From positions 158,321 to 222,320 of the forward strand of contig JACKGM010000002.1 of the NCBI GenBank assembly GCA_020639315.1: DNA of 64,000 nucleotides, written 5' to 3'. Made by a program: the position numbers and the translations under genes. The notes beneath the pieces were generated by a model. It was not told where the DNA came from, did no database searches, and saw only the letters and a list, made by a program, of their open reading frames with translations. Positions 9,844-47,391 of the stretch are shown piece by piece. Source of the DNA: Candidatus Nomurabacteria bacterium. Its GTDB lineage: Bacteria > Patescibacteriota > Saccharimonadia > JAGOAT01. Position 1 is the first letter of the stretch. Each line of letters begins with the position of its first letter.

Positions 9844-9875
9844 ACTCGTTCAATCAGTTTTCTGGCACAATAATT

Positions 9876-10647: not shown

Positions 10648-10677
10648 TCAACCCAGTTATGCTTAAATATATAGATA

Positions 10678-12234: not shown

Positions 12235-12276
12235 ACTTAAGACACAGTGATAGCTTAACTATACAAGGAGTAGATT

Positions 12277-12684
12277 ATGACAAAGGTTTTATTAGTAGAA
12301 GATGATATCAACTTACGAGATCTTTATTCAGCTAGGCTAAGTGCAGAAGATATAGAGGTCTTTGTAGCTAGCGACGGAGAAGAGGGGCTGACCATGGCTA
12401 CTAGTATTAAGCCTGATCTAATCATCCTCGATGTAATGATGCCCAAGATCTCAGGCTTTGATGTGCTAGATATCCTCAGACAAACTCCGGGACTCGAACA
12501 AGTCAAGGTAATCATGATGACCGCTCTAAGCTCCGAACAAGACCGTCAGAGAGGAGATCGACTCGGAGTATCAGCCTATCTGGTCAAGTCTCAAGTAACC
12601 TTAGAGGATGTGGTAGAAACAGCGATGGGGGTACTCAATAACTCGATTAATGGCATCCAACCTTCGGCCTTCACTCAGGGTTAA
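12277..12684 (+). CDS. response regulator, receiver domain only (CheY-like)
   Basis: VLLVEDD...DLIILDVMMPKISGFDVL...MMTAL...KS; no output domain. Confidence 0.9.
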   Translation: MTKVLLVEDDINLRDLYSARLSAEDIEVFVASDGEEGLTMATSIKPDLIILDVMMPKISGFDVLDILRQTPGLEQVKVIMMTALSSEQDRQRGDRLGVSAYLVKSQVTLEDVVETAMGVLNNSINGIQPSAFTQG

Positions 12685-12685
12685 T

Positions 12686-12846
12686 GACCCTGATACTATA
12701 TAAACTTGTGAGGTCAAAATTGATGATTTTTATTCCAGGGTATCAGAACAGGACAAAGCATAATAGATATTATGTTGCGGAGTGTTTTGTTAGTCTGGGG
12801 CAAAAAAGGCAGTTTTGAAGCCGTGAGGTTATATAGCATCAGGGTC
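12686..12846 (+). mobile_element. MITE-B copy (161 bp), diverged
   Basis: Colinear with the other copies but with many substitutions. It fills the whole intergenic gap and contains both candidate start codons of the next gene. Confidence 0.7.
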
Positions 12847-13533
12847 AACAAAGCACTTGTCGAGCTGGGCTTTGCTAGCTCTCGGCGTAAGGCTGATCAG
12901 CTAATTTCTCTAGGTAAGATCAAGATCAATGGCAAACTAGCTCAGACTACTAGCCAAGTATCTGGTGGTGATACAATAGAAGCTCAAAATATGACAGTGA
13001 CCTACCAGCCAAGCTTACCTAGTAATCAGCTAATCTTACTAAATAAACCCAAGGGTTATCTTTCTAGTCATCTTAGCCAAGATGCTCCCACCATTTTTGA
13101 ATTATTACCAGACAAGTACCATAGCTACAAAATTGCTGGCAGGCTCGACAAGGACAGTAGGGGATTAATGCTTATCAGTAATAATGGTCAATTGATCCAG
13201 CAACTCAGCCACCCAAGTAGTCACAAATCAAAGTATTATCGAATCACGCTTGATCGTCAGATCAAAGATTTTGGCTTTGTCGCCAAGCAATTCAAGTCTG
13301 GCATGACCATTGATGGTCAGATCTATCGAGCTCAAGCGATCAAGCTGATCAGGCCAGATATAGTAGAAATAATCTTGATCTCCGGCAAGAATCGTCAAAT
13401 CCGTAAAATGTTTAAAGCAATGGGTTACCAAGTGATTGATCTAATCCGAACAAAGATTGGTGATTACCAGCTTGGTGACTTAGAGGAAGGTCAGTATCAA
13501 ATTGTCCAAATAGCCACGAAAGAGCCGCAATAG
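12772..13533 (+). CDS. RsuA/RluB-family rRNA pseudouridine synthase (S4 domain + catalytic domain)
   Basis: S4-like NKALVELGFASSRRKADQLI and the catalytic motif GRLDKDSRGLMLISN. Start uncertain (ATG 12772 or GTG 12823); both lie inside MITE-B. Confidence 0.85.
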   Translation: MLRSVLLVWGKKGSFEAVRLYSIRVNKALVELGFASSRRKADQLISLGKIKINGKLAQTTSQVSGGDTIEAQNMTVTYQPSLPSNQLILLNKPKGYLSSHLSQDAPTIFELLPDKYHSYKIAGRLDKDSRGLMLISNNGQLIQQLSHPSSHKSKYYRITLDRQIKDFGFVAKQFKSGMTIDGQIYRAQAIKLIRPDIVEIILISGKNRQIRKMFKAMGYQVIDLIRTKIGDYQLGDLEEGQYQIVQIATKEPQ

Positions 13534-14393
13534 TGATTGAGCTAATTTTTAATATCATATTTCTTGGATTTTCGTTGGTAAATCCGCATCTAGATTATGC
13601 CGTTGGTTTTAAATCTAGCAAGTTTGAGATCGATGCCTTGAGATCGGTCCAGCAAGATTTTAGCTTACCCGAGCTCAGTGCCAAACAGTTTGAACTCTAT
13701 CAACTCGATACTGATACAGTGATCTCTAATATCAATCAGCAATCAAAACTACCAATCGCTTCATTGACCAAGCTAATGACAGCACTAATCATTATCTCTG
13801 AAAACCAACCGACTGAGGAGATTACCACCCAAATCCTTGATTTACCCAATGGCTATCAGAGCAATTACTTATCAACTAGCTCAAAAATAGATGTCCAAAG
13901 CCTACTAGAACTTCTACTAATCAGTTCTGACAATCAAGCAGCTCTCAATCTAGCACTATTCAATGCCGGATCGATCAATGGCTTTGTCGATAAAATGAAT
14001 TGGTATGCTACAAACCTTGGGATGAACAATACTCAGTTTGCCAATCCTTATGGACAGGACGACCCCAATAATTATTCTACATCTGAGGATCTCATTATAC
14101 TGACCAAATTGGTTTTGGCCCAGCCAATTCTATCAGGCATTGTTGGAACTACCAATCAATCTATCAGCTATGGGGGGCAAGATTTTGAACTAATTAGTAC
14201 CAATAAGTTGCTTCCTAGGCCTGATGTTCATGGTGTCAAGACTGGCACTGAGACCTTGGCTGGGCAGTGTCTAATCGTGCTTTATCAAAACTCAGCTGGT
14301 AGTTTCCTAATCACCATCCTGGGCTCTGACGACCGGTACCAAGATGCAACCTCAGTAATCGAACAATTGCAAGTACTAAGCGCTAGTGACTAG
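13533..14393 (+). CDS. serine-type D-Ala-D-Ala carboxypeptidase (peptidase S11, PBP5-like)
   Basis: SxxK (ASLTK), SxN (SSDN) and KTG (VKTGTE) motifs in the correct order. Confidence 0.8.
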   Translation: MIELIFNIIFLGFSLVNPHLDYAVGFKSSKFEIDALRSVQQDFSLPELSAKQFELYQLDTDTVISNINQQSKLPIASLTKLMTALIIISENQPTEEITTQILDLPNGYQSNYLSTSSKIDVQSLLELLLISSDNQAALNLALFNAGSINGFVDKMNWYATNLGMNNTQFANPYGQDDPNNYSTSEDLIILTKLVLAQPILSGIVGTTNQSISYGGQDFELISTNKLLPRPDVHGVKTGTETLAGQCLIVLYQNSAGSFLITILGSDDRYQDATSVIEQLQVLSASD

Positions 14394-14407
14394 CACAGGG
14401 AGTATTG

Positions 14408-14506
14408 GTCATCCCCCGAAACCCGTCCCTCTCTTGTCATCCTCCGAAACCCACCCCTCTCCTGTCATCCTCCGAAGTTCGAAGAACTTACGGGGGATCC
14501 AGTGTT
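14408..14506 (+). repeat. REP-like cluster C (2 half units + 1 full unit)
   Basis: GTCATCCCCCGAAACCC..., TGTCATCCTCCGAAACCC..., TGTCATCCTCCGAAGTTCgaaGAACTTACGGGGGATCCAGTGTT. Confidence 0.9.
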
Positions 14507-14518
14507 TCACAAACAAGT

Positions 14519-15591
14519 CCCATAGTTCCAATATCAAATGCAACCGTTAGAATAATACATACAATTAAACGAAAGGATTGCATGAGTCACCTAACGGCTG
14601 CAGAACGGGGTAAGATAGAAGTCTTACTCCAAGACAATTATACAAATAATCAAATAGCAAAGCGAATTGGTAAAGATAAATCTACTATAGGTAGAGAGAT
14701 CAAAAGAGGGCTTGATGGTAAAGGTATCTATCATACCTGGATAGCTCAATCTAGCTATGAAGAGAACCGACAAGAATCTAGACAGATACCAATCTTAGAT
14801 AACCCAGTTAATCATCGTTTACGCAGTCGAGTAGTAGACTGCCTACAGAAGGGCTGGAATCCAGTAACTATCTCAGGTAGATTAAAGAAAGAAGGACACC
14901 CATCAGTCTCTGCTGAAACTATCTATAACTGGATATATACTAGCTCTTGGGCTAAAGAGGAAAAGCTCTATCAATATCTTAGACAAGGCAAGAAAAAGAG
15001 AACCAAGAATCAAGGTAGGTCATCTCATAGGTCTAAGATACCAAATCGAGTATCTATCCATAAAAGACCAGAAGTTGTAAATCAAAGAACCAGACTAGGA
15101 GATTGGGAGGGTGATAGTGTCTTATACCTACATAAACAAGCTATTAACACTGTAAACGAGAGAATTAGTAGTTTAGTAGTATTTACTAAACTAGACCGTA
15201 AGACAGCAGAGGAGACAGCCAATGCAGTAATAGACGGGCTTAGAGGTCTTGTTGCCCATACCATCACCTTTGATAATGGTACTGAATTCACTAAACACGA
15301 GAGAATCACAGAAGCTATTGGTATAGAGGTATACTTTGCTGATCCATATAGCTCTTGGCAGAGAGGAGCTAACGAGAATATCAACGGACAACTTAGGGCG
15401 TATCTCCCTAAGCGTAGTGATATTAGGGGACTAACCCAACAAGAGCTAGATGATATAGCCTGGGAGCTTAATAACAAGCCTAGAAAAAGACTAGGGTGGC
15501 ATACACCTCAAGAGGTTTACGATTGGCTTGCTTCTAACCCTAATAGTGAGTTAGACTTAGCTAAGGTTGCATTTGGAAATAGAATCTAGGG
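14519..15591 (+). mobile_element. IS30-family insertion sequence, copy 1 (1073 bp)
   Basis: Reads as the same sequence as 25417-26489 by eye, and the sense and antisense ORF translations are identical. Imperfect terminal IRs CCCATAGTTCCAATATCAAATGCAACCGTTAG / CTAAGGTTGCATTTGGAAATAGAATCTAGGG. Confidence 0.9.
14582..15589 (+). CDS. IS30-family DDE transposase
   Basis: 335 aa. HTH N-terminus, DWEGD, DNGTEF and SWQRGANENINGQLRAYLPK motifs. Start taken from the identical copy 2; the ORF-track start at 14405 runs through REP repeats. Confidence 0.9.
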   Translation: MSHLTAAERGKIEVLLQDNYTNNQIAKRIGKDKSTIGREIKRGLDGKGIYHTWIAQSSYEENRQESRQIPILDNPVNHRLRSRVVDCLQKGWNPVTISGRLKKEGHPSVSAETIYNWIYTSSWAKEEKLYQYLRQGKKKRTKNQGRSSHRSKIPNRVSIHKRPEVVNQRTRLGDWEGDSVLYLHKQAINTVNERISSLVVFTKLDRKTAEETANAVIDGLRGLVAHTITFDNGTEFTKHERITEAIGIEVYFADPYSSWQRGANENINGQLRAYLPKRSDIRGLTQQELDDIAWELNNKPRKRLGWHTPQEVYDWLASNPNSELDLAKVAFGNRI

Positions 15592-15631
15592 TCTAAGAGT
15601 TTTACGCCTTAGCATGCTATAATCCTAAGGT

Positions 15632-16939
15632 ATGCAACAAGCAACCTTTAGTATCTTTGGTCGAACCAATGTCGGCAAATCCACCCTATTCAACCACTTG
15701 ATTGGTCGACGCCTGGCAATCGAATCCGACTACCTCAATACCACCCGTGACCCGATTAGACAAACTGTCACATTCGATCAGCAAAATTGGCAAATCGTCG
15801 ATACGCCTGGCCTCGATAAGACTGATGATGCTCTTGCCAGACTAGCGATGGATCAAATCGACCACCTAATAGATGAAAGTGATGTATCAGCTCTAGTAGT
15901 TGATGGGACAGTAGAAGCTAGCGAGCTAGACATCAGCCTCGCTAGACGCCTTAGACGAAGTGGCAAACCTGTAATTTTACTAGTCAACAAGGCTGATATT
16001 ACGAGCAAGTTTCTTGGGCTAGCAAACTATCAAAAGCTTGGGATTAGAGAAATGATCCCAATTTCCTCGATCCACAATATTGGCATAGATCAGATTAGGT
16101 CAGCTCTCTCCCAATACTATTCTTCTAGTAATCAAGCTGACAACTTTGACCCAGAATTAAGCATTAGTCTAGTCGGCAAGCCAAATGTCGGCAAATCCTC
16201 ACTACTCAATGCCTTGTCCAGGCATCAGGTCAGTCTAGTATCTGAGATAGCAGGCACTACCAGAGATCAAGTCTCAGCCAACTGGCAAGTGGATGATCAG
16301 ACCATCAATCTGGTCGATACTGCCGGAATTAGAAAAAATGGCAAAGTTAGCAAACAGATTGAGAAACTATCTCTTCTAAGAACCAAGAAGGCGATCGAGC
16401 AGTCTGAAATCTGTCTACTTGTCCTCGATGCCGAATTGCCTGATGGGCATCTTGACCAGAAGATAGCCGGGATGATTGATCAAGCTGGCAAAGGGCTAAT
16501 CATCATTATCAATAAGTGGGACAAGATTGACGACACAGAACAAGAAGTATTCAAGCAAACAATTGCAAAATCTTTCCAATTCATCTGGTGGGCTCCGATT
16601 GTCTTTGTCTCTGCCAAGACTGGATCTGGCCTCAATCAACTAGCTGATTTAGTAAAAATTGTTGAAGCCAATATTCACCAGCCCAAGAGTATCAAACAAA
16701 TTGATAGGATCCTCAATCAAGCTTTTCAAAAACATCCAGCAAAAACGATCAAAGATCATAAGACTGTCAAATTTAGTAATGCCAAGGTTGTTGACAACCT
16801 GCCGCTGACAATTCAACTCTATGGTCGAGATATTAGTCAGCTACATTTTTCTTATCTAAGATATCTAGAAAATCAGCTTAGAGATCGACTAGAGATGACT
16901 GGTGTTCCGATCAAGATTATCAATCATCCAGCTCGATGA
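15632..16939 (+). CDS. der: ribosome-associated GTPase Der/EngA
   Basis: Two G domains (GRTNVGKST, DTPG, NKAD; GKPNVGKSS, DTAG, NKWD) and a KH-like C-terminus. Confidence 0.95.
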   Translation: MQQATFSIFGRTNVGKSTLFNHLIGRRLAIESDYLNTTRDPIRQTVTFDQQNWQIVDTPGLDKTDDALARLAMDQIDHLIDESDVSALVVDGTVEASELDISLARRLRRSGKPVILLVNKADITSKFLGLANYQKLGIREMIPISSIHNIGIDQIRSALSQYYSSSNQADNFDPELSISLVGKPNVGKSSLLNALSRHQVSLVSEIAGTTRDQVSANWQVDDQTINLVDTAGIRKNGKVSKQIEKLSLLRTKKAIEQSEICLLVLDAELPDGHLDQKIAGMIDQAGKGLIIIINKWDKIDDTEQEVFKQTIAKSFQFIWWAPIVFVSAKTGSGLNQLADLVKIVEANIHQPKSIKQIDRILNQAFQKHPAKTIKDHKTVKFSNAKVVDNLPLTIQLYGRDISQLHFSYLRYLENQLRDRLEMTGVPIKIINHPAR

Positions 16940-17481
16940 CCAGACTAATCGTTGGGCTAGGCAATCCTGGTAAACAATATCAATTTAGCCGTCACAATCT
17001 GGGCTGGATGGTGCTTGATCAGCTTGCGACAGACCTAAACCTCCAATGGTCCACTCATAAATACAGCTTGACTAGCAAAAGCCCTGATCTTATTCTGGCC
17101 AAGCCCACTACTTATATGAACCTTAGTGGTCAGGCAGTCCAAAAACTTAAAGCCTTTTACAAGCTTGACAATCAGGCGATCACCATTGTCTATGATGACT
17201 ATGCTATAGACTTTGGTGATCTTAGGATCCGTCACTCCGGAAGTGATGCCGGACATAATGGCCTAAAATCCGTGATTCAAGCAATCGGAGAAGACTTTTG
17301 GCGCTACCGGATAGGGATTGGTCCCAAGCCTGAATATCAGCCGACTAGAGATTTTGTCCTGGCTAACTTTTCAGACAATGAAGTTTCCAGCTTGGGTTCA
17401 ATTATTCCAGCTACAGCGAAATACTTACTTGACACGGCTCAACCAGCCGATACTACCCTTCGAATACTGGATTTACCATAA
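16936..17481 (+). CDS. pth: peptidyl-tRNA hydrolase
   Basis: LIVGLGNPGKQYQFSRHNLGW...GHNGLKS. ATGA overlap with der. The last 6 codons and the stop lie in a REP-like unit. Confidence 0.95.
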   Translation: MTRLIVGLGNPGKQYQFSRHNLGWMVLDQLATDLNLQWSTHKYSLTSKSPDLILAKPTTYMNLSGQAVQKLKAFYKLDNQAITIVYDDYAIDFGDLRIRHSGSDAGHNGLKSVIQAIGEDFWRYRIGIGPKPEYQPTRDFVLANFSDNEVSSLGSIIPATAKYLLDTAQPADTTLRILDLP

Positions 17482-17678
17482 TTTCCTAGAGGAAATTTGG
17501 GAGATGACACGGAGAGGGAAGCGGAATTTTGGAAGATGACAGGAGGGCATTGTCATCCTCCGAAACCCGTCCCTTGTCTTGTCATCCTCCGAAACCCGTC
17601 CCTTGTCTTGTCATCCTCCGAAACCCGTCCCTTGTCTTGTCATCCTCCGAAACCCGAAGGGTTTACGGGGGATCCAGT
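17463..17678. repeat. REP-like cluster D (reverse full + reverse half, three perfect 29-bp half units, one full unit cut by MITE-B)
   Basis: AATACTGGATTTACC...GAGATGAC; ...GGAAGATGAC; 3x TGTCATCCTCCGAAACCCGTCCCTTGTCT (starts 17551, 17580, 17609); full unit from 17638. Confidence 0.9.
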
Positions 17679-17840
17679 AACCCTATTGCCATATAAACTT
17701 GCGAGGTCAAAGCTGATGATTTTTATTCCAGAATAGCAAAACACGACAAAGCATAACAGGAGTTACGCTGCGAAGTGTTTTGCTAGTCTGGGGCAAAAAA
17801 TGGCAGTTTTGAAGCCGTGAGGTTATATGGCAACAGGGTT
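17679..17840 (+). mobile_element. MITE-B copy (162 bp) inserted into the 3' end of a REP-like unit
   Basis: Flanks ...GGATCCAGT | element | AGTATTTATGG. Removing the element and one AGT restores the canonical GGATCCAGTATTT. Confidence 0.85.
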
Positions 17841-17898
17841 AGTATTTATGGGGCCCAGTTATTAGACAGCTGAGCTCAATCAATGCTAAAATACCACT

Positions 17899-18969
17899 AT
17901 GAAATACGTAATCACAGCCGGCGGACAAGGTACAAAACTTTGGCCTCTATCTAGAGAAGCCAAACCAAAACAATTTCAAAACATCATCGGAGACCAAACT
18001 CTCTTCAAAATCAATCTAGATACTTTACTAACCGAGATTGACCCCGAAGATATTATTATTCAGACCAAAGAGCGCTACCTAGATCTGGTCAGGACTGACA
18101 ATCAGGCAGTTCCTGAAAAGAACATTATTTTGGAGCCTGACTTCAAAAAAAATCGAGGCCCAGCCGATGGGCTAACAATGGTTTGGCTTGACCATCACTA
18201 CCCTGGTGAGCCCTTCATCTTAATCCAAAGTGATTGCTTGAGATTACCAAATGATCGCTACCTTTCTACCCTTAAGTCAATTGAAGAATTACTGATTAAA
18301 GATCAGGTCTTTATTACGGCTGGACTTAAGGCTACCCGACCTGACCTAGGTGTAGATTATTTTTCCCTAGGAGAGAAGCTAAGTGAAGTTAATAATATTA
18401 GTATTTACAAGATTGACAAGTTTATTCCGAGAAGCTCAGACTATGCCGAAACCAAAAAGCTAATTCAAGACTATCATGTATCTACCCACGCCAATCACAA
18501 TGCCTACTATCCTAAGAAAATGCTTGAAGCCTATAAGAAATATCGTCCTGACTGGTACCAAGCTCTAGAGAAAATATCTAAAGTCCTAGATCAACCTGAT
18601 CAAGTGGCAGCAATTTACCAGACCATGGAATCTGGAGCTACAGAAGATGTCACTCAGCATTTATTTGATTCTGGAGCCCTAGTTCTTCTACCCTTTGAAT
18701 GGATTGATGTCGGTACCTGGGATAGTATTTACCAGACTTTGCGTCATGAGCAAGAGGAGATTTATAAGGATGGTCAAGTGATCGATATCGATAGTCAAAG
18801 AAGTTTAGTCAAGGCTAACCCTAATAAGCTGGTAGCCTTGCTCGGAGTAGAGGATCTTGTAGTAGTAGATAGCGATGATGTTTTACTGGTAGCAGATCGA
18901 CATCGGAGTGGAGACATTAGTAAAGTGCTTAAAGGGCTTGAAGACCAAAGTCTAGATAAGTATCTATAG
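17899..18969 (+). CDS. mannose-1-phosphate guanylyltransferase-like sugar nucleotidyltransferase
   Basis: N-terminal AGGQGTKLWPLSREAKPKQF signature of ManC/CpsB-type NTP transferases. Confidence 0.75.
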   Translation: MKYVITAGGQGTKLWPLSREAKPKQFQNIIGDQTLFKINLDTLLTEIDPEDIIIQTKERYLDLVRTDNQAVPEKNIILEPDFKKNRGPADGLTMVWLDHHYPGEPFILIQSDCLRLPNDRYLSTLKSIEELLIKDQVFITAGLKATRPDLGVDYFSLGEKLSEVNNISIYKIDKFIPRSSDYAETKKLIQDYHVSTHANHNAYYPKKMLEAYKKYRPDWYQALEKISKVLDQPDQVAAIYQTMESGATEDVTQHLFDSGALVLLPFEWIDVGTWDSIYQTLRHEQEEIYKDGQVIDIDSQRSLVKANPNKLVALLGVEDLVVVDSDDVLLVADRHRSGDISKVLKGLEDQSLDKYL

Positions 18970-19057
18970 CCATTGCCAATACTTAGCGAATCCTGTAAAA
19001 TTATTCAGTAACTTAAAGTATTTCTAAAAGCTCCTTAAAAACTAGATAGATATATTT

Positions 19058-19122
19058 ACTCGACTTACGCAAAACCTCGGATACTCTAGACTTGCCTTCC
19101 AGAGATTTTGCGTAAGTCGAGT
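19058..19122. repeat. perfect 17-bp inverted repeat with a 31-nt loop, abutting tRNA-Cys
   Basis: ACTCGACTTACGCAAAA ... TTTTGCGTAAGTCGAGT. It ends 4 nt before the tRNA 5' end. Confidence 0.8.
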
Positions 19123-19126
19123 CTAG

Positions 19127-19200
19127 GGCCTGTTGGCCGAGTGGTTAGGCAAAGGTCTGCAAAACCTTGTACAGCGGTTCGATCCCGCTACAGGTCTCCA
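19127..19200 (+). tRNA. tRNA-Cys (GCA)
   Basis: Cloverleaf folded by hand: acceptor GGCCTGT/ACAGGTC, anticodon arm AAGGT-CTGCAAA-ACCTT, T arm AGCGG-TTCGATC-CCGCT, encoded CCA. Confidence 0.85.
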
Positions 19201-19208
19201 TAGCAAAA

Positions 19209-19300
19209 GGGCGAGTGGTGGAATTGGTATACACGACGGACTTAAAATCCGTTGCCTTATTTTTTATGGCTTGAGGGTTCGAGTCCCTCCTCGCCCACCA
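19209..19300 (+). tRNA. tRNA-Leu (TAA), type II long variable arm
   Basis: Acceptor GGGCGAG/CTCGCCC, anticodon arm ACGGA-CTTAAAA-TCCGT, T arm GAGGG-TTCGAGT-CCCTC, encoded CCA. Confidence 0.85.
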
Positions 19301-19322
19301 TCCAACCAATTTCACAACCACA

Positions 19323-19461
19323 CATAGCAAGCTCAAAACAAAATCCAATTCCCTGACTAGGATAATAGGGAAACAGTAGTTGAGTTCTTCTACTGGACTC
19401 TAGTACCAGGTCAGGAATTGTGATCGATAGAAATGTCTGATTTTGTTTTTAACTTGCGATA
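19323..19461 (+). mobile_element. MITE-A-related element (shared termini, different core) inside the tRNA cluster
   Basis: Ends ATAGCAAGCTCAAAACAAAATC ... GATTTTGTTTTTAACTTGCGATA. Inner inverted repeat CAATTCCCTGACTAGG/CCAGGTCAGGAATTG. Confidence 0.6.
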
Positions 19462-19476
19462 ACTAAGAATGACTAT

Positions 19477-19553
19477 GGGTGATTAGCTCAGTTGGCTAGA
19501 GCATCTCGTTTACACCGAGGAGGTCAGAGGTTCGAGTCCTCTATCACCCACCA
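19477..19553 (+). tRNA. tRNA-Val (TAC)
   Basis: GGGTGAT...ATCACCC acceptor, anticodon loop TTTACAC, T loop TTCGAGT, encoded CCA. Confidence 0.9.
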
Positions 19554-19576
19554 TTAATTTCTCACTATCCCTATTT

Positions 19577-19653
19577 GGGGCATTAGCTCAGCTGGTTAGA
19601 GCACCTGCTTTGCAAGCAGGGGGTCATCGGTTCGAATCCGATATGCTCCACCA
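19577..19653 (+). tRNA. tRNA-Ala (TGC)
   Basis: GGGGCAT/ATGCTCC acceptor with the G3:U70 identity pair, anticodon loop TTTGCAA, encoded CCA. Confidence 0.9.
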
Positions 19654-19654
19654 T

Positions 19655-19730
19655 GGCGACTTAGCTCAGTTGGTAGAGCAGAGGCCTGAAGAGCCTTGTG
19701 TCGTAGGTTCGATTCCTACAGTCGCCACCA
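19655..19730 (+). tRNA. tRNA-Phe (GAA)
   Basis: GGCGACT/AGTCGCC acceptor, anticodon loop CTGAAGA, T loop TTCGATT, encoded CCA. Starts 1 nt after tRNA-Ala. Confidence 0.9.
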
Positions 19731-19773
19731 TTTTATAAGCATTGTAACTTCTTATCCTTAGTTCCCAAATTCA

Positions 19774-20201
19774 GATACTGGATCTCCCATAATTTCCTAA
19801 AGGAAATTTGGAAGATGACACGAAGAGGCCTTGTCATCCTCCGAAACCCGCCCCTTGCCCTGTCATCCTCCGAATCCTCGTAAGAGGATTACGGGGGATC
19901 CAGTATTAGTATTGTGTATTGCATTGCCATCCTCCGAAGTCCAAAGAACTTACGGGGGATCCAGTATCCCGTATTTGCATCCGTCATACTCAGAGCTTGC
20001 TCTGGGTATCCAGAAAACTAATAATAAACATAAAAACTAACTGTACTACCTAATCCATTATCTAGAGTTCTGGATCCCCAACTTTTCCTTCAAATGAAGG
20101 GCGGAAAAGTTGAGGATGACTCAATTCCTGTCATCCTCCGAAACCTGTCGCTTGTCCTGTCATCCTCCGAAACCCGGAGGGTTTACGGGGGATCCAGTAT
20201 T
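19774..20201. repeat. REP-like cluster E (two reverse+forward composites plus extra units)
   Basis: Reverse units 19774-19819 and 20067-20120. Forward half units at 19832 and 20129. Full units at 19861, 19924 and 20158. Variant unit at 19983. Confidence 0.9.
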
Positions 20202-20210
20202 CTACATTTA

Positions 20211-20372
20211 TAGACCCAACACCCTGACTTACCACTAAATTCCTGACCTCTCCTAGTACTAGCCATCTTTACTCCTTCTTCATATCAAAGGATATGACTC
20301 AGTCTTAAAGCAGACTATTACTTAGTCTAGGGTCTAGGAATTTATTGTGGCAAGACAAAGTGTTGGGTCATA
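20211..20372. mobile_element. MITE-C: 162-bp element with about 40-bp imperfect terminal inverted repeats
   Basis: TAGACCCAACACCCTGACTTACCACTAAATTCCTGACC ... GGTCTAGGAATTTATTGTGGCAAGACAAAGTGTTGGGTCATA. Single copy in the window. Confidence 0.55.
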
Positions 20373-28746: not shown

Positions 28747-29345
28747 CTTGAAAATAACTCCTTAATCATGTTGTAGTCGGGCATTACTTCTTCACGGACA
28801 TCCTCGAATAAGATTTTATTATTCAGATCACGGTCAATCTTCTTGAGCACCCAATCTTTAGTCTCTTCAAGTGTTCTGTCATAACCAAAAGCCCAAGTAG
28901 CATAAATATAAAAATCAGTTTTAAGATGTGCAAGCGAATCAGCAGTAGCTAAAATTTTGCCCTCAGTTGAAGCAGGTCGTTCGTCGCCGTGACAGCTATG
29001 GTAACGGATGGCATCGTCAACTACGAGCTTTACATCATCTTCGCTATACCCAGCCTCCTGCATAAGTTCACGAGCCATACGCAGACTTTCTTCTTCGTGA
29101 GTTGGGTTGTCACGCTTCATCTTAACATCGGCAATATCGTGAAGTAGAGCAGCCACACGTGCTAATTCTTCGTTAGCCCCATATTTTTTCGCTAGTTCAG
29201 TAGCATAATCAGCCACAACAAATACGTGGTTATCAGCCAGCCAACTCGCCCATTCTTCACGATTAGGATTGCCTTCTTGATAAAGCTCTTTTACTAGTTT
29301 TTCAAGATTCTCTAACTTTTCCATTGTTTTTTCTAATAACCCCAT
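28743..29345 (-). CDS. HD-domain phosphohydrolase
   Basis: ...H..(x)n..ALLHDIADV... HD motif; 200 aa. Confidence 0.7.
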   Translation of the reverse strand: MGLLEKTMEKLENLEKLVKELYQEGNPNREEWASWLADNHVFVVADYATELAKKYGANEELARVAALLHDIADVKMKRDNPTHEEESLRMARELMQEAGYSEDDVKLVVDDAIRYHSCHGDERPASTEGKILATADSLAHLKTDFYIYATWAFGYDRTLEETKDWVLKKIDRDLNNKILFEDVREEVMPDYNMIKELFSR

Positions 29346-29424
29346 TACGTATTGACGGCGATATCAACTATCACATCATACCACATACGAACTATGCTTG
29401 ATGGCAATTCAACAAATTCTATGA

Positions 29425-29501
29425 TGGTGCGGGTACCGGGACTCTAACCCGGGGCCTCATCCTTGGCAAGGATGCGCTCTAAACAACTGAGCTACACCCG
29501 C
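29425..29501 (-). tRNA. tRNA-Gly (GCC) with an atypical D-loop/T-loop
   Basis: The reverse complement folds as GCGGGTG TA GCTC AGTTGTTTA GAGC G CATCC TTGCCAA GGATG AGGCC CCGGG TTAGAGT CCCGG TACCCGC A CCA. Confidence 0.85.
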
Positions 29502-29574
29502 ATAGACCTCATTATACCAAAATTCCCAAAAAGCACCACACTCACCACTATCCCCCCAAAAACCCTCTCCCCAA

Positions 29575-29641
29575 TTTCAAGGGGTGCCCTTGAAATCACC
29601 CATTCCAACAGATCAAAATTAGCAAGGGGTGCCCTTGAAAA
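29575..29641 (+). repeat. palindromic doublet (REP type 2) upstream of the RAYT gene
   Basis: TTTCAAGGGgtgCCCTTGAAA - 26 nt - GCAAGGGgtgCCCTTGAAAA. Confidence 0.85.
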
Positions 29642-29746
29642 GGACAAAAAACAAACTGGTTCTGCTTGTCAAAATGTACTTAATTAAGCTACAATACTAC
29701 CAACAGATATTTTTAACTATCCTTAATTAACTACTACTATAAAATT

Positions 29747-30400
29747 ATGCCGAGCCCCAATACGGTTAGAATCTTTTGCTCAGACTCCAGTTTTCATATA
29801 TATTGCCGAGGGAATAGAAAACTACCTATATTTTTCAGCGCACAAGAATATGAAAAATTTATGTCTATTTTACTTTTTCTATTAACCCCAAAAGCAAAAG
29901 TAGCAGATAATCTTAAGATATTTTCCAAACCTAGACTAGCTAGTCAAGATTTTAGCCAAGCTATCCATTTAGTTGCATTTACCTTAATGCCTAATCATTA
30001 CCATCTCGTTATTCATGCTAAAGAATCTTCTTTGGTACCAGGGTTTATGCAAAGACTAAATCAAAAATTTACACATTTAATCAATACCAATCATAACTTT
30101 GTAGGACATCTATTCCAAAGTCAGTACAAATCAAGATTGATAAACTCCGAGCTAGATTTGGTCAATACAACTGCCTATGTCCATCTCAACTCAAATGAAC
30201 TAATGCGAACCAACACTGAATATTATAAAGAATACCCCTATAACAGTTTAGCAACTACTCACCCAGTGTCAGCCGTGGTTGACCAGAGTTTGCTTTTCAC
30301 TAAATCTGGCTTTAGTAGGGAAGACTATAATAAATATTTAGATATAAAATCAAAGAATTTTCTAGAGATGCAATTTATGAAAAAATTAATGTCTAGTTGA
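29747..30400 (+). CDS. IS200-like Y1 (HUH) transposase, REP-associated tyrosine transposase (RAYT)-like
   Basis: HUH motif MPNHYHLVI, GHLFQSQYKSRLI and TTAYVHLN are typical of the Y1_Tnp/RAYT family. Flanked by matching palindromic doublets. Confidence 0.8.
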   Translation: MPSPNTVRIFCSDSSFHIYCRGNRKLPIFFSAQEYEKFMSILLFLLTPKAKVADNLKIFSKPRLASQDFSQAIHLVAFTLMPNHYHLVIHAKESSLVPGFMQRLNQKFTHLINTNHNFVGHLFQSQYKSRLINSELDLVNTTAYVHLNSNELMRTNTEYYKEYPYNSLATTHPVSAVVDQSLLFTKSGFSREDYNKYLDIKSKNFLEMQFMKKLMSS

Positions 30401-30430
30401 CACTCAAGAGGTCTTTTGTGTTTCATCCTT

Positions 30431-30496
30431 TTTCAAGGGGTGCCCTTGAAATTACTCATCCCAACAGATCAAAATTAGCAAGGGGTGCCCTTGAAA
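30431..30496 (+). repeat. palindromic doublet (REP type 2) downstream of the RAYT gene
   Basis: Same architecture and orientation as 29575-29641. Confidence 0.85.
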
Positions 30497-30523
30497 TCAT
30501 CAATCTTACTGTTGGACTGAAGT

Positions 30524-30687
30524 TATAGCAAGTTAAAAACAAAACCAGACTTTTGACCCAACTCTAGAGTCTATCAAGCTAGTTTTCTTACTCACCATAT
30601 CTATGGATATGGCTCTTAAGAAGAACTACCTTTATAGTTCTCTATAATACAGCTCAAATTGTCTGGTTTTGTTTTGAGCTTGCTATA
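30524..30687 (+). mobile_element. MITE-A copy (164 bp)
   Basis: Full-length copy with both TIRs. Confidence 0.8.
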
Positions 30688-30706
30688 AGTGTGTTAAATT
30701 ACTAAT

Positions 30707-31039
30707 ATGGAAAATCCATTATCGATAATCAATTTTGCGGAGCCGTGGCAGAAAGAACTAGCTAAGCAAGTAGTAGAGCTGTCAATTCGGATTATCCCGG
30801 AAGGGAAGTGGGAAAAGAAATGGGGCATGCCATATCTAGTAGTTAATGGTAAAAATCTCCTGGGAATCTGGTCAGCTCGCAACTGGACTACAGTATTTAT
30901 CATGGGTGGAGCCAGCTTCGAGTCAAAGATCTTTGAGCCAGGAGATAGGAAGAAAGATGCTACGATCCATCTCAAAGAGGGTTTTCAGGACTGGGACGAG
31001 CTAAAACGCGTTATCAAGCTGACTTTGTCAAATGACTAA
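30707..31039 (+). CDS. DUF1801 (YdhG-like) family protein
   Basis: ...KKWGMPYLVVNGKNLLGIW...TTVFIMGG... fits the DUF1801 pattern. The antisense ORF 30694-30975 was discarded. Confidence 0.45.
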   Translation: MENPLSIINFAEPWQKELAKQVVELSIRIIPEGKWEKKWGMPYLVVNGKNLLGIWSARNWTTVFIMGGASFESKIFEPGDRKKDATIHLKEGFQDWDELKRVIKLTLSND

Positions 31040-31419: not shown

Positions 31420-32637
31420 CTACTCAATTCCCTCTGGCAAAAACCCATCTGGGTGTTTGAAATCTGCCTCCCACTGATAGCCTTTGCCATAATCCAAGTC
31501 TTTCATTAGGCTAGTTACTGGATTACGCAAGTGCTTGGGCACGTTTGCGTTGGGATATTTACTGACCAAAGCTTTGGCTTCTACCATTTGCTCCGCTACC
31601 AGCCTAGATTTTTTCGCTTGACACATTGCAATCGTTGCCTGAGACAAAGCATACTCTGCCTCGGGTAAACCTACCCGCTCTACAGCCTGGAAAGTTGAAG
31701 TAGCCAAGGTAAGTGCATGAGGGCTAGCCATACCAATATCTTCACTAGCGAAGATGATAATTCTTCTGGCGACAAACTTTGGATCCTCACCAGCATTAAG
31801 CATCCGATAAAGGTAGTACATAGCAGCCCGGCTATCACTACCACGCATTGACTTGATGTAAGCTGAAATCAAATCATAGTGCTGATCACCATTTTTATCG
31901 TATTTAGCTACTACCTGTTGCATTGCTTGCTCTATCTGTTTTTTGCCTATAACCCTGGTAGACAATGAAGCCGCTATCTCTAGCCCTCCGAGTAGAACCC
32001 TAGCATCTCCAAGCGACATTTTGACTAGCAAAGAAGCAGCTTGAGGCGTAATCGTCTTAGGCCTTACGAAGATCTTTGCTCGGTTGATGATGCCGAGTAA
32101 ATCGACTTCCGTAAGCGCCTCAAACACCAGCACACGACTCCTGCTGAGCAGAGGTGCAATCACTTCAAATGAGGGATTCTCAGTAGTTGCCCCTATCAAG
32201 TGAACAGTCCCATTTTCGACATAAGGAAGAAACATATCCTGCTGAGCTTTATTGAAACGGTGAATCTCGTCTACAAAAAGGATGGTTTGCCTGCCTAGGT
32301 TTTTTGATTGCAAAGCCTGATCAATCGCCTGCCGAACTTCAGCCTTGCCCATACTGACAGCCGAAACTTCGATAAATTCAGCCCGGTAAGTATCTGCAAT
32401 CACTCTAGCCAAGGTTGTCTTACCTGAGCCAGGGGGACCCCAAAAAATCATCGAAGTCAGCTTGTCAGCCCTGATTAGCCCACGAATCAGACCTTGCTCT
32501 CCGACCAAGTGACCTTGTCCGACAATCTCATCTATACTCTTAGGTCTCAGCTTTTCAGCTAAAGGAATTGCTTGATTGTTCTCAAACAGACTTTTTACTT
32601 CTACCGACTTCACTCTTACTTGATACCTATCAACCAT
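31420..32637 (-). CDS. rarA: replication-associated recombination protein A (AAA+ ATPase)
   Basis: Walker A GPPGSGKTT, Walker B LFVDEIHRFNK, and a C-terminal MgsA domain (YDLISAYIKSMRGSD). Confidence 0.9.
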   Translation of the reverse strand: MVDRYQVRVKSVEVKSLFENNQAIPLAEKLRPKSIDEIVGQGHLVGEQGLIRGLIRADKLTSMIFWGPPGSGKTTLARVIADTYRAEFIEVSAVSMGKAEVRQAIDQALQSKNLGRQTILFVDEIHRFNKAQQDMFLPYVENGTVHLIGATTENPSFEVIAPLLSRSRVLVFEALTEVDLLGIINRAKIFVRPKTITPQAASLLVKMSLGDARVLLGGLEIAASLSTRVIGKKQIEQAMQQVVAKYDKNGDQHYDLISAYIKSMRGSDSRAAMYYLYRMLNAGEDPKFVARRIIIFASEDIGMASPHALTLATSTFQAVERVGLPEAEYALSQATIAMCQAKKSRLVAEQMVEAKALVSKYPNANVPKHLRNPVTSLMKDLDYGKGYQWEADFKHPDGFLPEGIE

Positions 32638-33529
32638 TCAAGATTGTGTACAATAAAGCTTGACGAACATAGAGTCCATTACGGACCTGCTCAAAGTAGT
32701 AAGCCGCAGGATGCTTGTCTACTGCCAAGTCAATTTCATCAACCCGAGGCAATGGATGAAGTACTCTAAATGTTTCCTTGGTGTCCACTAGATCTTCCAG
32801 ACTCAACTTCAATCTACCAGCCACTTCAAAGTATTTAGCTGGATCATCAAATCTCTCCTTTTGTACCCTAGTCATATATAAGATATCTTGCTTATCCAGC
32901 TGGCCAATACTTGATCTAAATTGAACCTGACAACCTGAATCCTGAGCCAATTTAACTAAATCTTGGGGTAGCTGCAAATAATCATCAGCTATCAATGTAA
33001 AATTGATCCGATATCGAGTCAAGGCCTTTACTAGAGAGTGAACTGTCCTACCATACTTAAGATCGCCAGCCAAAGCAATATTTAACCCCTCCAGACCACC
33101 TTGTGTAGACTGAATAGAGTAAAGGTCTAGCAGGGTCTGAGTAGGATGCTCATTGCTACCGTCTCCGGCATTGACTATTGGCACACCACTGACAGCTTGA
33201 GCCCGGCTAGCAGAGCCAGCTTCACCATGTCGGATCACTATCGCATCAGCATATTGGCTAATAGCCCTAATTGTATCTTCGAGGCTTTCCCCTTTACTCT
33301 GACTACTTGTATCGGCGCTTGCAAAGCCAATCACCGAGCCACCTAGATAGCTAATCGCACTCTCAAAACTCAGCCTAGTTCTAGTACTAGGTTCAAAGAA
33401 AAGGCTAGCCACAACTTTACCCTTTAATTGATCACTGTGATGATTGAGCTCAAACTGCTGAGCTTTTTTAAGCAATTGATTGATTTGCGCTTCTGATAAA
33501 TCATCAATTGATATTAGACTTTTTAGCAT
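32630..33529 (-). CDS. pyrB: aspartate carbamoyltransferase catalytic subunit
   Basis: FFEPSTRTRLSFE, HPTQ and HPLPR motifs. Its 3' end overlaps the rarA start by 8 nt. Confidence 0.93.
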   Translation of the reverse strand: MLKSLISIDDLSEAQINQLLKKAQQFELNHHSDQLKGKVVASLFFEPSTRTRLSFESAISYLGGSVIGFASADTSSQSKGESLEDTIRAISQYADAIVIRHGEAGSASRAQAVSGVPIVNAGDGSNEHPTQTLLDLYSIQSTQGGLEGLNIALAGDLKYGRTVHSLVKALTRYRINFTLIADDYLQLPQDLVKLAQDSGCQVQFRSSIGQLDKQDILYMTRVQKERFDDPAKYFEVAGRLKLSLEDLVDTKETFRVLHPLPRVDEIDLAVDKHPAAYYFEQVRNGLYVRQALLYTILNG

Positions 33530-33583: not shown

Positions 33584-33650
33584 TTTCAAGGGGTGCCCTT
33601 GAAATCACCTACCCCAACAGATCAAAACTAGCAAGGGGTGCCCTTGAAAA
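33584..33650 (+). repeat. palindromic doublet (REP type 2), third copy
   Basis: TTTCAAGGGgtgCCCTTGAAA ... GCAAGGGgtgCCCTTGAAAA, in the divergent pyrB/receiver intergenic region. Confidence 0.85.
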
Positions 33651-33722: not shown

Positions 33723-34100
33723 ATGACTAAAGTCAAAACAATCCTGCTTGCTGAAGATAACGAATTTATCCGTAAGATGTATGAGCTCAAGTTTGGCAAG
33801 GCCAAGCTCGATGTGATCTCAGTGACCAATGGGGCAGAAGCGATTGAGCAATTTGACAAGCATGACTTTGGACTAATCTTATTAGATCTAATGATGCCAG
33901 AGATCAACGGTGAAGAAGCCCTAGAATATTTACGGACTAAAGCTAAGAAAAACCGCAAAGTACCAGTCCTAATTTTGACCAATGTCAATGATCCCACTAC
34001 GATTGAAAAGATTCGAACCCTCGGTATCGACGATTATATCATCAAGTCAGAGCTAACTCCTTCTCAAGTCCTTAATAAAGTCAACCAATACATTACCTAA
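33723..34100 (+). CDS. response regulator, receiver domain only
   Basis: ILLAEDN...LILLDLMMPEINGEE...LTN...IKS. Confidence 0.85.
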   Translation: MTKVKTILLAEDNEFIRKMYELKFGKAKLDVISVTNGAEAIEQFDKHDFGLILLDLMMPEINGEEALEYLRTKAKKNRKVPVLILTNVNDPTTIEKIRTLGIDDYIIKSELTPSQVLNKVNQYIT

Positions 34101-46977: not shown

Positions 46978-47007
46978 CCCTTCGCATTCTTGGCTATCCT
47001 TCGGGTC

Positions 47008-47391
47008 TGTCATCCTCCGAATCCCGCCCTCTCCTGTCATCCTCCGAATCCTGACCCTTGTCCTGTCATCCTCCGAAAATCCAAAGGATTTTACGGGGGA
47101 TCCAGTATTTCTGCATTTCTGGGATTCAATTCAAATACTGGATCTCCGGTATTCCCCTCCGGGTAATCCGAAGATGACAAGAGGGAGCATTGTCATCCTC
47201 CGAATCCTGACCCTTGTCCTGTCATCCTCCGAAAATCCAAAGGATTTTACGGGGGAACCAGTATTTCTGCATTTCTGGGATTCAATTCAAATACTGGATC
47301 TCCGGTATTCCCCTCCGGGTAATCCGAAGATGACAAGAAGGGCATTATCATCCTCCGAATCCTCGCATGAGGATTACGAGGTAATCAGTAT
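47008..47391. repeat. REP-like cluster F, including a 155-156 bp tandem duplication
   Basis: Half units at 47008, 47035 and 47191. Full units at 47064 and 47219. Reverse units around 47133 and 47289. Degenerate unit at 47345. Confidence 0.9.

Follow-up and report, generated by a model that had tools for sequence, protein, structure and literature searches.

The locus lies in a small Saccharibacteria genome and was analysed within a window of 64,000 nucleotides (64 kb), the whole stretch of DNA considered here. It is a known kind of locus with an unusual layout: an intact gene is placed between two same-strand 66-base double-hairpin sites. The gene, ORF 29747-30400 on the plus strand, codes for a HUH/Y1 protein of 217 aa (RAYT-1), in which H84 and H86 constitute the HUH motif and Y144, within the Y motif YVHLNS, is the putative catalytic tyrosine. 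The hallmarks by which an earlier reading of this DNA (the original prediction) had recognized it, namely NHYHLVI (aa 83-89), GHLFQSQYKSRLI (aa 120-132), and AYVHLN (aa 143-148), belong to an intact reading frame, and the HMM search proposed with that reading gave a match to Pfam Y1_Tnp (PF01797) of 33.1 bits (cutoff 23; E 6.7e-8). Module 1 (29575-29640) ends 106 nt ahead of the ATG and module 2 (30431-30496) begins 30 nt past the stop codon; a gene-less module 3 (33584-33649) is found about 3 kb away, in the intergenic region between pyrB (32630-33529, minus strand) and a divergently oriented response-regulator ORF (33723-34100, plus strand). All three modules are on the plus strand, so that the predicted bracketing of the gene in one orientation, with a third copy nearby, was borne out. 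The same applies to the neighbours of the locus, which are tRNA-Gly(GCC) (29425-29501, minus strand) and a MITE-like copy (30523-30688; repeat families D5 and I1). Between module 1 and the ATG, a promoter-like site TTGTCA-18-TACAAT (29666-29695, plus strand) matches the consensus in 10 of 12 positions; it is a consensus match only, which is kept in a related species as TTGCCA...TACAAT. A 9-mer repeat, CCAACAGAT, in the 5' leader (29702-29715) is not conserved in this relative and was dropped.

For classification, the protein was compared with HMMs, known folds and the published motif table (Table 1 of PMC6006769). The sole NCBIfam match of RAYT-1 is the equivalog model NF047646 (REP_Tyr_transpos) with 42.1 bits, which is under the cutoff of 80; its relatives score 38.8-40.1 bits. 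The model transpos_IS200 gave no match to RAYT-1 at E<=1 and reached 12.9 bits at most among RAYT-1 and its relatives; this value belongs to the orthologue of a related species, which scores 39.6 bits with REP_Tyr_transpos. A PDB search with the profile of the RAYT-1 family found 4ER8 (TnpA_REP) as the best match (3.5e-4), followed by ISDra2 TnpA (2.4e-3), whereas the matches of the single sequence were too weak for classification. The AF2 model of RAYT-1 (pLDDT 93.9) matches the Y1 folds 4ER8, 2XM3 and 2A6M, and 4ER8 is again the best PDB match determined by Foldseek (E 1.4e-5, TM 0.66). In an alignment with 61 relatives, H84 never varies, and H86 and Y144 rarely do. The ORF thus encodes an intact HUH/Y1 protein, which is nearer to RAYT/TnpA_REP than to IS200 TnpA.

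The motif set reported for subclass 2.1 consists of NH[YF]H, FQ, Y[IV]HLNP, and SS in the tail, at a median length of about 238 aa (PMC6006769). RAYT-1 has NHYH, GHLFQ, and YVHLNS, a tail with YPYNSL (family consensus YxYSS), and 217 aa. Judged by these motifs, it is a member of Quentin subclass 2.1, known also as Bertels Group 1 and as the TIRYT type; the original prediction had read the locus as a REP/RAYT system, which agrees neither with this placement nor with a score of 42 bits against the RAYT cutoff of 80. Class 2 proteins have the Y motif Y---NP (Quentin 2018), whereas that of RAYT-1 ends in NS: asparagine is kept and proline is replaced by serine, also in the orthologue (YVQLNS), and the paralogues P0017 and P0287 have YIHLNP. 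None of these motifs is of the type Y---Q. PADLOC defence-system models gave no match. For the annotation of the window this means that the gene comprises 217 aa rather than 179, and codes for a RAYT-like protein, not for an IS200 'transposase'.

The modules have a common layout of hairpin, spacer of 27-28 nt, and hairpin. The window contains exactly six copies of the string CAAGGGGTGCCCTTGAA, always on the plus strand and in three pairs spaced by 45 nt (29578/29623, 30434/30479, 33587/33632); 100 shuffles of the window contained no match. Mutual identity of the three modules is 92-95% (95% for modules 1 and 2), and similarity ends abruptly at TTTC... and ...GAAA. In module 1, h1 (29575-29595) is followed by the spacer (29596-29622), h2 (29623-29637), and AAA; as single-stranded DNA, it folds with -13.5 kcal/mol (z -2.3). 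The two hairpins had been described as identical, with stems of 8 bp and GTG loops. The loops are as stated; the stems differ, since the first hairpin of each module, TTTCAAGGG-GTG-CCCTTGAAA, has 9 bp, and the second, TAGCAAGGG-GTG-CCCTTGAAA, has a perfect stem of 6 bp only. A conserved spacer core, AACAGATCAAAAT, is located 5' of h2 (29607-29619, 30463-30475, and 33616-33628, plus strand; the last one ends in C). Direct repetition extends over the entire modules, loops and non-palindromic spacer included; since the palindromes are almost perfect, a doublet can alternatively fold into a single long hairpin. At the foot of the hairpins, one strand has (A/T)(A/T)TTTCAAGG and the opposite strand TTTCAAGGGCAC; GT[AG]G is found on neither. 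No Rfam family matches the modules. A further palindrome, CAAGGGCCCCTTG at 36306, is a chance match within the IF-2 gene. GC skew, considered as a marker of the active strand, is mostly negative on the plus strand and was uninformative; it cannot reveal this strand because hairpins form on both.

A different contig of this genome carries a fourth module of the type described (type 1), also gene-less; about 75 kb thus contain four modules, of which three are within 4 kb of the gene. In about 57 kb located over 5 kb away from any Y1 gene, one gene-less module was seen, which corresponds to roughly 20 per Mb (Poisson 95% about 0.4-100), and the copy number of the palindromes looks low. Scanning a collection of genome contigs that excluded the source genome with CAAGGGGTGCCCTTGAAA gave 9 scattered matches, about as many as expected by chance, none of them from Saccharibacteria and none with a Y1 gene within 8 kb; two scans of viral contigs for modules found nothing. 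In a six-frame HMM scan, the window contained a single Y1 match. The assumption of a single-copy gene holds for the window and with respect to near-identical copies; for the genome it does not, as a second Y1 gene, P0017 (RAYT-2), which is 53% identical to RAYT-1, is located elsewhere on the same contig. The original prediction of two REP-like systems with one enzyme was likewise incomplete: P0017 adds a second enzyme and a third palindrome type, while the GTCATCC family is indeed without an enzyme in the data seen.

P0017 has the same arrangement of direct doublets and the same period of 45 nt, combined with a different hairpin. Its spacer core is AACAGATATAAAT, and AACAGAT is common to the cores of type-1 and type-2 modules. 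A third lineage (L116) shows this layout again, with the spacer core CAACAGATCAAAATT; here h1 and h2 pair perfectly with each other, and the local stems contain an A.C mismatch and a G.T pair. Between module types, three stem pairs are altered on both sides; the resulting covariation value of 0.285, compared to 0.14 in shuffles, was reached by none of 500. A link between gene and palindromes is thereby shown: every paralogue is paired with a hairpin of its own, and within a genome the hairpins change together.

One could argue that terminators or chance palindromes, unrelated to the gene, flank it by coincidence. The second hairpin, together with the following CTAATTTTGA on the minus strand, in fact fits a loose terminator pattern, but the window holds 2 such terminators compared to 1.0 +/- 1.1 in shuffles, which is no excess, and none of the repeats is expected by chance. 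Moreover, three independent lineages share the layout and differ in their hairpins, and 47 of 75 metagenomic relatives have flanking palindromes of their own. We give this reading almost no credence, as it is already effectively refuted.

The paralogue also provides natural variants. The RAYT-2 unit recurs with 100% identity over 892 nt beside a different gene, one site adjoining AspRS (the L114 context) and the other TrpRS; identity starts 15 nt 5' of h2, in the middle of the spacer and, in the comparison of L114 with L112, exactly at the conserved spacer-core motif. This unit has been moved or transferred recently; evidence for the mid-spacer boundary comes from this one comparison and concerns the paralogue. 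In addition, direct doublets either enclose a relB/yafQ cassette together with one doublet or lack it. This difference is explained equally well by ordinary homologous recombination, with the 69-nt direct repeats as partners.

In a related species, with which synonymous sites are saturated, the RAYT-1 gene and all three modules occupy the same positions. The values of pN (0.124) and pS (0.714) for RAYT-1 and its orthologue signal that the gene is under purifying selection. Within one genome, the flanking modules are 95-97% identical, whereas positional orthologues share just 79-80%; moreover, a derived GGAGTCCCC is common to 5 of the 6 hairpins of the related species. Hence, evolution of the two flanking modules is concerted. 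The orthologue of module 3 is found at the same site and bears the spacer signatures specific for module 3. Conservation of the modules alone is no strong evidence of selection, because neighbouring promoter-bearing intergenic DNA is conserved to about the same extent. Taken together, the arrangement is shown to be ancient, to be inherited vertically, and to be under purifying selection. RAYT-1 and its modules form a sedentary unit in this genome, and this copy may no longer move, because the gene and the three modules have stayed in place since the species split. Neither cleavage nor an excision circle nor an empty site was seen for the RAYT-1 locus; more distant RarA homologues (66-69% identity; L108-L111), inspected in search of an empty site, were uninformative, as they show neither synteny nor a Y1 gene.

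These findings bear on the proposal that the locus is an ordinary autonomous IS200/IS605-type insertion sequence, in which modules 1 and 2 would simply mark the left and the right end, and module 3 would be a decayed or miniature derivative. End hairpins on the same strand, as in LE and RE of IS608, the 100% identity of the paralogous unit in a second genomic context, and short-read contigs of other samples, which break inside modules, would fit this proposal. The protein does not: it is of class 2, has Y---N instead of Y---Q, comprises 217 aa with a C-terminal tail, and fits the RAYT model better than the IS200 model. A single copy in 64 kb, one contig per assembly in two assemblies that both read through the unit, and a position kept across saturated synonymous divergence at low pN/pS also argue against it. 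Furthermore, the conserved sequence of the modules is located between their two hairpins, not outside as in a mini-element of the type LE...RE. The original prediction had opposed to its own reading an IS200 protein of multi-copy type with hairpins confined to its ends; what we find is a RAYT-like protein and modules 3 and 4, which are gene-less and located elsewhere. We consider an IS200/IS605-type element highly improbable.

A metagenome scan for relatives of RAYT-1 yielded no close ones but sequences with only 26-36% identity, which served as a family-wide test set; cluster representatives matching the protein at E<1e-3 number 9721. Among 75 distant relatives, 47 have a palindrome common to the upstream and downstream flanks, above shuffled controls, in about 22 cases in direct and in about 18 in inverted orientation. 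Hairpin-flanked Y1 genes are thus common in CPR and groundwater metagenomes. The upstream hairpin usually coincides with the -35 position of a box resembling TATAAT, shortly before the ATG; an obvious shared motif 5' of this hairpin was not detected in these relatives. Some relatives carry hairpins within the ORF.

The position of the upstream hairpin in distant relatives is one of the arguments for a domesticated DNA-binding system without transposition, in which the palindromes would be operator- or insulator-like sites in double-stranded DNA, bound by the helical C-terminal tail of the Y1 protein or by another factor, and would control the Y1 gene itself as well as nearby genes, for instance that of the response regulator. 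Modules 1 and 3 are in divergent promoter regions, module positions are fixed across species, TTCAAGG-N5-CCTTGAA resembles a dimer site, and the tails of subclass 2.1 resemble HTH domains (PMC6006769). In RAYT-1, however, a Pfam search detected no HTH domain, and a promoter-like match inside the module (TTGAAA-18-CAAAAT) is not kept in the relative. HUH histidines and tyrosine are kept in all four lineages and in the 61 aligned relatives, and the RAYT-2 unit in its new context, with a mid-spacer boundary, would be left unexplained. For these reasons, pure domestication appears distinctly unlikely to us.

The interpretation we prefer is that of a RAYT-like gene with cognate flanking sites, which is very probably correct. 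The complete explanation, in which an intact class-2 HUH/Y1 ssDNA nuclease-ligase of the RAYT-like subclass 2.1 has the 66-nt modules as its cognate DNA sites, is probable. In analogy to IS608 and E. coli TnpA_REP, the palindromes of single-stranded DNA would be extruded into hairpins, to which the enzyme would bind; H84 and H86 would hold the metal, and Y144 would cut and rejoin DNA in the spacer beside the AACAGAT core. A doublet would then have the anatomy of an abutted RE-LE junction, in which about 28 nt of spacer separate an RE-like hairpin from the LE-like hairpin that follows. In IS608, CL is located 19 nt 5' of IPL and CR 10 nt 3' of IPR (PMC3201880); with this geometry, about 29 nt are expected between the hairpins of an RE-LE junction, and the modules have 27-28 nt. 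Exchange between two same-strand doublets could excise or insert the intervening DNA and leave a solo doublet behind. The boundary of the paralogous unit and the geometry of IS608 suggest a unit of 856 nt (29607-30462, plus strand), which would extend from mid-spacer of module 1 to mid-spacer of module 2 and contain an LE-like half (spacer core and h2), the promoter, the gene, and an RE-like half (h1 and the 5' half of the spacer). We regard this junction-like cut-and-rejoin model, which is based on analogy, as possible, with somewhat more doubt than trust.

A more far-reaching idea, which we propose as speculation and deem rather doubtful, is that Y1 enzymes of subclass 2.1 use the direct doublet as an attachment-like site of recombination. 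Spacer cuts in two doublets followed by a strand swap would excise the segment between them, be it the enzyme gene or a passenger like the relB/yafQ cassette, as a circle with one doublet, which could be re-inserted at a solo doublet. If true, this would provide a defined substrate for the largest, so far function-less RAYT-like subclass and would indicate cassette shuffling driven by HUH enzymes in genome-reduced CPR bacteria. For subclass 2.1 / Group 1, the cognate site is unusually readable here, with two paralogous systems in one small genome sharing layout and spacer motif and differing in their hairpins. Concerted hairpin change in the orthologous pair and natural variants hinting at the start of the unit offer concrete oligonucleotides and mutants for biochemistry.

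Among the known systems, the REPtron of E. coli (yafM/rayT, PDB 4ER8; PMC2817692, PMC6006769) has in common with this locus a low-copy class-2 HUH/Y1 gene between short palindromes of its own, gene-less palindrome copies elsewhere, an own palindrome family per paralogue, vertical inheritance under purifying selection, and, with 4ER8, the best structural match. RAYTs are single- or low-copy, vertically inherited, and without near-identical duplicates (PMC5581495). Canonical REPs, in contrast, carry the tetranucleotide GT[AG]G 5' at the foot of the hairpin (PMC6006769), which is lacking here; flanking units are direct instead of inverted (REPINs), a handful of copies was seen compared to more than 100 for classical REPs (PMC2817692), and RAYT-1 belongs to subclass 2.1, not 2.2, 2.4 or 2.5, and scores below the NCBIfam cutoff for RAYT. 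Thus, of the REP/RAYT reading in the original prediction, the RAYT-like protein, its own palindromes and the gene-less copies stand, whereas the missing foot, the direct orientation and only four modules in about 75 kb do not conform to it.

IS200/IS605 elements (IS608, ISDra2), which move by peel-and-paste, may resemble the locus in their way of working, which does not imply membership: they share the HUH/Y1 fold, subterminal hairpins on the same strand at both ends, and a conserved sequence 5' of the LE-like hairpin. With respect to IS608, the left boundary of the paralogous unit is 15 nt 5' of the hairpin compared to 19 nt, and the hairpin spacing in the doublet is 27-28 nt compared to 10 + 19 nt in the RE-LE junction. 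Differences are Y---N in place of Y---Q, 217 aa compared to a core-only protein of about 150 aa, a single-copy gene syntenic across species without tnpB as opposed to multi-copy, near-identical elements, and a complete doublet instead of one hairpin at each end. With REPINs (PMC3116915), the modules share a doublet of palindromes with a spacer, able to fold as one long hairpin; here the palindromes, as judged by loops and spacer, are direct and not inverted, and abundance is far lower.

In a survey of subclass 2.1, no REP-like structures and no association with REPs were reported (PMC6006769), whereas this gene and those of 47 among the 75 metagenomic relatives lie between clear hairpins. TIRtrons, whose genes are flanked by terminal inverted repeats, many with GGGGWSAS (PMC3733652), encode the TIRYT proteins of this subclass (Group 1, PMC5581495). 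In these, NH[YF]H, FQ, Y[IV]HLN and a serine tail, a length of about 220-240 aa, and low copy number correspond to RAYT-1, and their small families of non-GTAG repeats, sometimes self-complementary or doubled, correspond to the modules; the 66-nt modules, however, are repeated directly and not as terminal inverted repeats. Agreement with GGGGWSAS extends to 7 of 8 positions in the type-1 hairpin, GGGGTGCC, whereas the hairpin of P0017, which reads GGGGTCAG on the complementary strand, fits completely. The locus is REPtron/TIRtron-like, yet not a classical REP system, because copy number looks low, the GT[AG]G foot is missing, and the doublets are direct.

The region 29300-30800 of the window reads as described in the original prediction, and the claimed HUH open reading frame is real: it extends from 29747 to 30400 on the forward strand and encodes 217 amino acids, including NHYHLVI, GHLFQSQYKSRLI, and AYVHLN. 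A six-frame HMM scan found only this one Y1 gene in the window. The 17-mer CAAGGGGTGCCCTTGAA occurs six times in the window, always on the forward strand and as three pairs at a distance of 45 nt; it was absent from all of 100 shuffles, which excludes a chance origin of the palindromes. There are three forward-strand modules of 66 nt each, located upstream of the gene (module 1, 29575-29640), downstream of it (module 2, 30431-30496), and near pyrB (module 3, 33584-33649). Their mutual identity is 92-95% and similarity is lost sharply at both edges; Rfam contains no family matching them. Each module had been described as two hairpins with equal 8-bp stems. These stem lengths need correcting: the stem comprises 9 bp in the first hairpin (TTTCAAGGG/CCCTTGAAA, loop GTG) and just six perfect pairs in the second one, TAGCAAGGG...CCCTTGAAA. 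Both expected neighbours are present, namely tRNA-Gly(GCC) (29425-29501, reverse strand) and a 166-nt MITE-like copy with 28-nt inverted ends (30523-30688). The window contains this element four times, at 2050, 7856, 30523, and 52308; the orthologous site of a related species (locus L106) lacks it and is a natural empty site for the copy at 30523-30688.

Pfam Y1_Tnp matched the protein with 33.1 bits (gathering score 23), as anticipated. The sole NCBIfam match was the RAYT model REP_Tyr_transpos, with 42 bits under a cutoff of 80, and the IS200 model gave nothing at E ≤ 1; for the orthologue and two paralogues the RAYT model scored about 40 bits and the IS200 model at most 12.9 bits. PADLOC gave no match. 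For a profile of 61 relatives, the top match was E. coli TnpA_REP (4ER8; 3.5e-4) with ISDra2 TnpA close behind (2.4e-3). The confident AlphaFold model (pLDDT 93.9), compared with the PDB by means of Foldseek, retrieved 4ER8 first (E 1.4e-5, TM 0.66 on target), then ISDra2 and IS608 TnpA. According to the motif table of Quentin et al. 2018 (PMC6006769), subclass 2.1 is defined by NH[YF]H, FQ, and Y[IV]HLNP plus a serine-bearing tail; this subclass is Bertels Group 1, corresponds to the TIRYTs of Di Nocera 2013, and is described as being without REP-like structures (PMC6006769). Because its motifs NHYH, GHLFQ, and YVHLNS fit this set, the window protein is predicted to be RAYT-like (class 2) and not IS200 (class 1, Y---Q). 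An exhaustive search with the window protein gave 9721 cluster representatives at E<1e-3. As most of these comprise about 200-235 residues, with alignments that begin at residue 1 of the 217-aa ORF, the latter is the true gene; the 179-aa NCBI model P0001 (likewise P0002) begins at Met39 and omits the conserved N-terminal strand MPSPNT...FHIYCRGN (window 29747-29861). Two distant homologues from different organisms (P0004 and P0009) both adjoin, divergently, an mreB-mreC-(mreD)-PBP2 cluster (L011, L016-L023), which suggests that these Y1 genes are stably resident in the chromosome.

The nearest other relative is P0017 (RAYT-2), which is 53% identical and belongs to the same genome; it is likewise present in the alternative assembly that carries the window protein. 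On either side of its gene lies a 62-nt module (type 2), the two copies being identical and direct and consisting of TCGGGGTCTGACCCCGA, a 28-nt spacer, and TCGGGGTCTGACCCCGA. They have in common with the window modules (type 1) the 45-nt period and the spacer core AACAGAT. The 11.6-kb contig with this gene carries a third type-2 module and, at 10015-10073 on the reverse strand and about 7 kb from the P0017 gene, a fourth type-1 module; solo modules exist. A third lineage (P0287, locus L116) is 51-60% identical to the others, and its hairpins, with spacer CAACAGATCAAAATTGA, are intermediate in sequence. Across the three module types, which represent few independent lineages, three stem pairs are altered on both sides, and the stem covariation score was 0.285 versus 0.14 in shuffles, a value reached by 0 of 500, with slid controls being lower. 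The abundant GTCATCCTCCGAA...TTACGGGGGATCCAGTAT hairpin family (window 4088-20232 and 47007-47391; 32 matches to the 13-mer with at most one mismatch) is unrelated in sequence to either Y1-associated type, and the DNA seen shows no Y1 gene associated with it. On the Gottesmanbacteria contig MFJR01000014.1, a long hairpin AAGGGCACTCCTTGC-N6-8-GCAAGGGGTGCCCTTGAAA occurs in two copies (L006:130-182, L010:7580-7636), with no Y1 gene within 8 kb. Its 3' arm equals the second hairpin of the window module over 19 nt; this may be coincidence, or the hairpin may be a related site in a different CPR phylum.

The window belongs to a Candidatus Saccharibacteria MAG. A RarA-anchored look-up gave the orthologous region of the related species (L106, GCA_017983775.1; RarA 91% identical, DNA about 75%). 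Common to both is the order tRNA-Gly, module, Y1 gene, module, ..., RarA, pyrB, module, response regulator. Identity between the Y1 orthologues is 76%, and their pN and pS (0.124 and 0.714) compare with 0.050 and 0.621 for RarA and with 0.073 and 0.580 for PyrB. Judged by synteny and these rates, purifying selection has preserved the RAYT-1 gene whole at this position from a time before synonymous-site saturation. Modules 1 and 2 are 95% identical within the window (w1-w2) and 97% within the related species (r1-r2); the positional orthologues w1-r1 and w2-r2 are only 79-80% identical. The spacer signature of module 3 is retained in both species (w3-r3 89%). Five of the six L106 hairpins read GGAGTCCCC in place of the window's GGGGTGCCC, and the window form is found there in the second hairpin of module 3 only. 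This concerted pattern rules out independent drift of three old sites: the hairpins undergo homogenisation, or selection to match one recogniser. The promoter-bearing intergenic DNA beside the modules is about as well conserved as the modules; therefore, the argument is the concerted pattern and not conservation alone. Gene and modules are a co-evolving pair, and the unit is old and selected.

A metagenome scan yielded 80 loci with relatives of 26-36% identity, which carry NH[FY]H / LFQ / YIHxNP motifs; in 75 of the loci the flanks could be used. The 300 nt preceding the start were compared with the 300 nt following the stop, and shared sequence had to be more than 2 longer than in any of 20 shuffles. 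In 47 of the 75 loci shared sequence passed; in almost every case it was a palindrome whose stem had 8-12 bp. In most loci the upstream copy is found 1-60 nt ahead of the start and the downstream copy 1-40 nt past the stop; about 22 loci have the latter in direct and about 18 in inverted orientation. Thus, hairpin-flanked genes are common in subclass 2.1, at least in the sampled environments, which extends the published statement that this subclass is without such structures. About 17 of 44 metagenomic relatives possess a third cognate hairpin in frame inside the Y1 gene (nt ~150-190 of the ORF; examples are L029, L049, L051, L059, L060, L063, L074, L091, L095, L100, and L104). It is always found at one place, the loop before the HUH motif (aa ~55-70), varies together with the flanking hairpins, and is in many cases inverted; neither the window gene nor P0017 has one. 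In-gene REPs have reportedly been published for subclass 2.4, located between HUH and Y.

In relatives such as L029, L034, L049, L060, and L104, the upstream hairpin mostly stops 10-20 nt short of a TATAAT-like box, which sits just before the ATG (upstream 40 nt of the Y1 start). The hairpin therefore overlaps the -35 position, an arrangement that would be compatible with autoregulation. Given this overlap and the location of modules 1 and 3 in divergent promoter regions, the palindromes may be purely regulatory; such a role has against it the conservation of the catalytic residues throughout, and it leaves unexplained the new genomic context of the RAYT-2 unit. This unit is 100% identical over 892 nt in the P0017 locus L112 (2023-2944) and in L114 from another sample (1082-2003), and its neighbour is TrpRS in L112 and an AspRS-like gene in L114. 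The identical stretch starts mid-spacer with AACAGATATAAATCG, and this point lies 15 nt 5' of the second hairpin; in the 12 nt ahead of this boundary 8 positions differ, and the flank is unrelated. Another strain, L113, is without the relB/yafQ toxin-antitoxin cassette and one doublet found in L112 (L112:1305-2084 versus L113:1222-1283), where a direct doublet lies on either side of the cassette. This difference could be due either to insertion or excision of the cassette at doublets or to deletion via recombination between repeats; homologous recombination between the 69-nt repeats accounts for it equally. For RAYT-1 itself, nothing indicated that it had moved recently.

IS608 is cleaved at two sites, one 19 nt 5' of the left hairpin and the other 10 nt 3' of the right hairpin, and the excised circle contains an abutted RE-LE junction (PMC3201880). 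In the doublets studied here, 27-28 nt separate the two same-strand hairpins, and conserved sequence is present between the hairpins but not beyond them; this anatomy is that of an IS608-type RE-LE junction, not of an LE...RE mini-element. A plain IS200-type insertion sequence is unlikely, as the position of the conserved sequence argues against it, as do the protein class, the single copy, and the synteny. By analogy, the enzyme would bind the hairpins on single-stranded DNA and would cut and rejoin within the spacer; exchange between two doublets would excise or insert the intervening segment, with a solo doublet left behind. The unit predicted in this way for the window is 29607-30462. We put this model forward tentatively, as a possible rather than a probable one.

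Of the proposed REP/RAYT system, a RAYT-like gene with its own palindromes is retained, and we consider such a gene with cognate sites very probable; classical membership is not retained. The hairpins lack the GT[AG]G foot of classical REPs, and the flanking modules are direct, whereas classical units are inverted. With four type-1 modules in about 75 kb of the genome, copy number may also be lower than in classical REP families. The locus is outside the classical REP/RAYT set and is probably best classed, by its motifs, as a subclass-2.1 (Group 1, TIRYT-type) Y1 gene, for which large, uncharacterised subclass it offers a testable substrate. In the way it works it resembles a REPtron or TIRtron, and perhaps IS608 as well; what is new is the layout of direct hairpin doublets with a conserved spacer.
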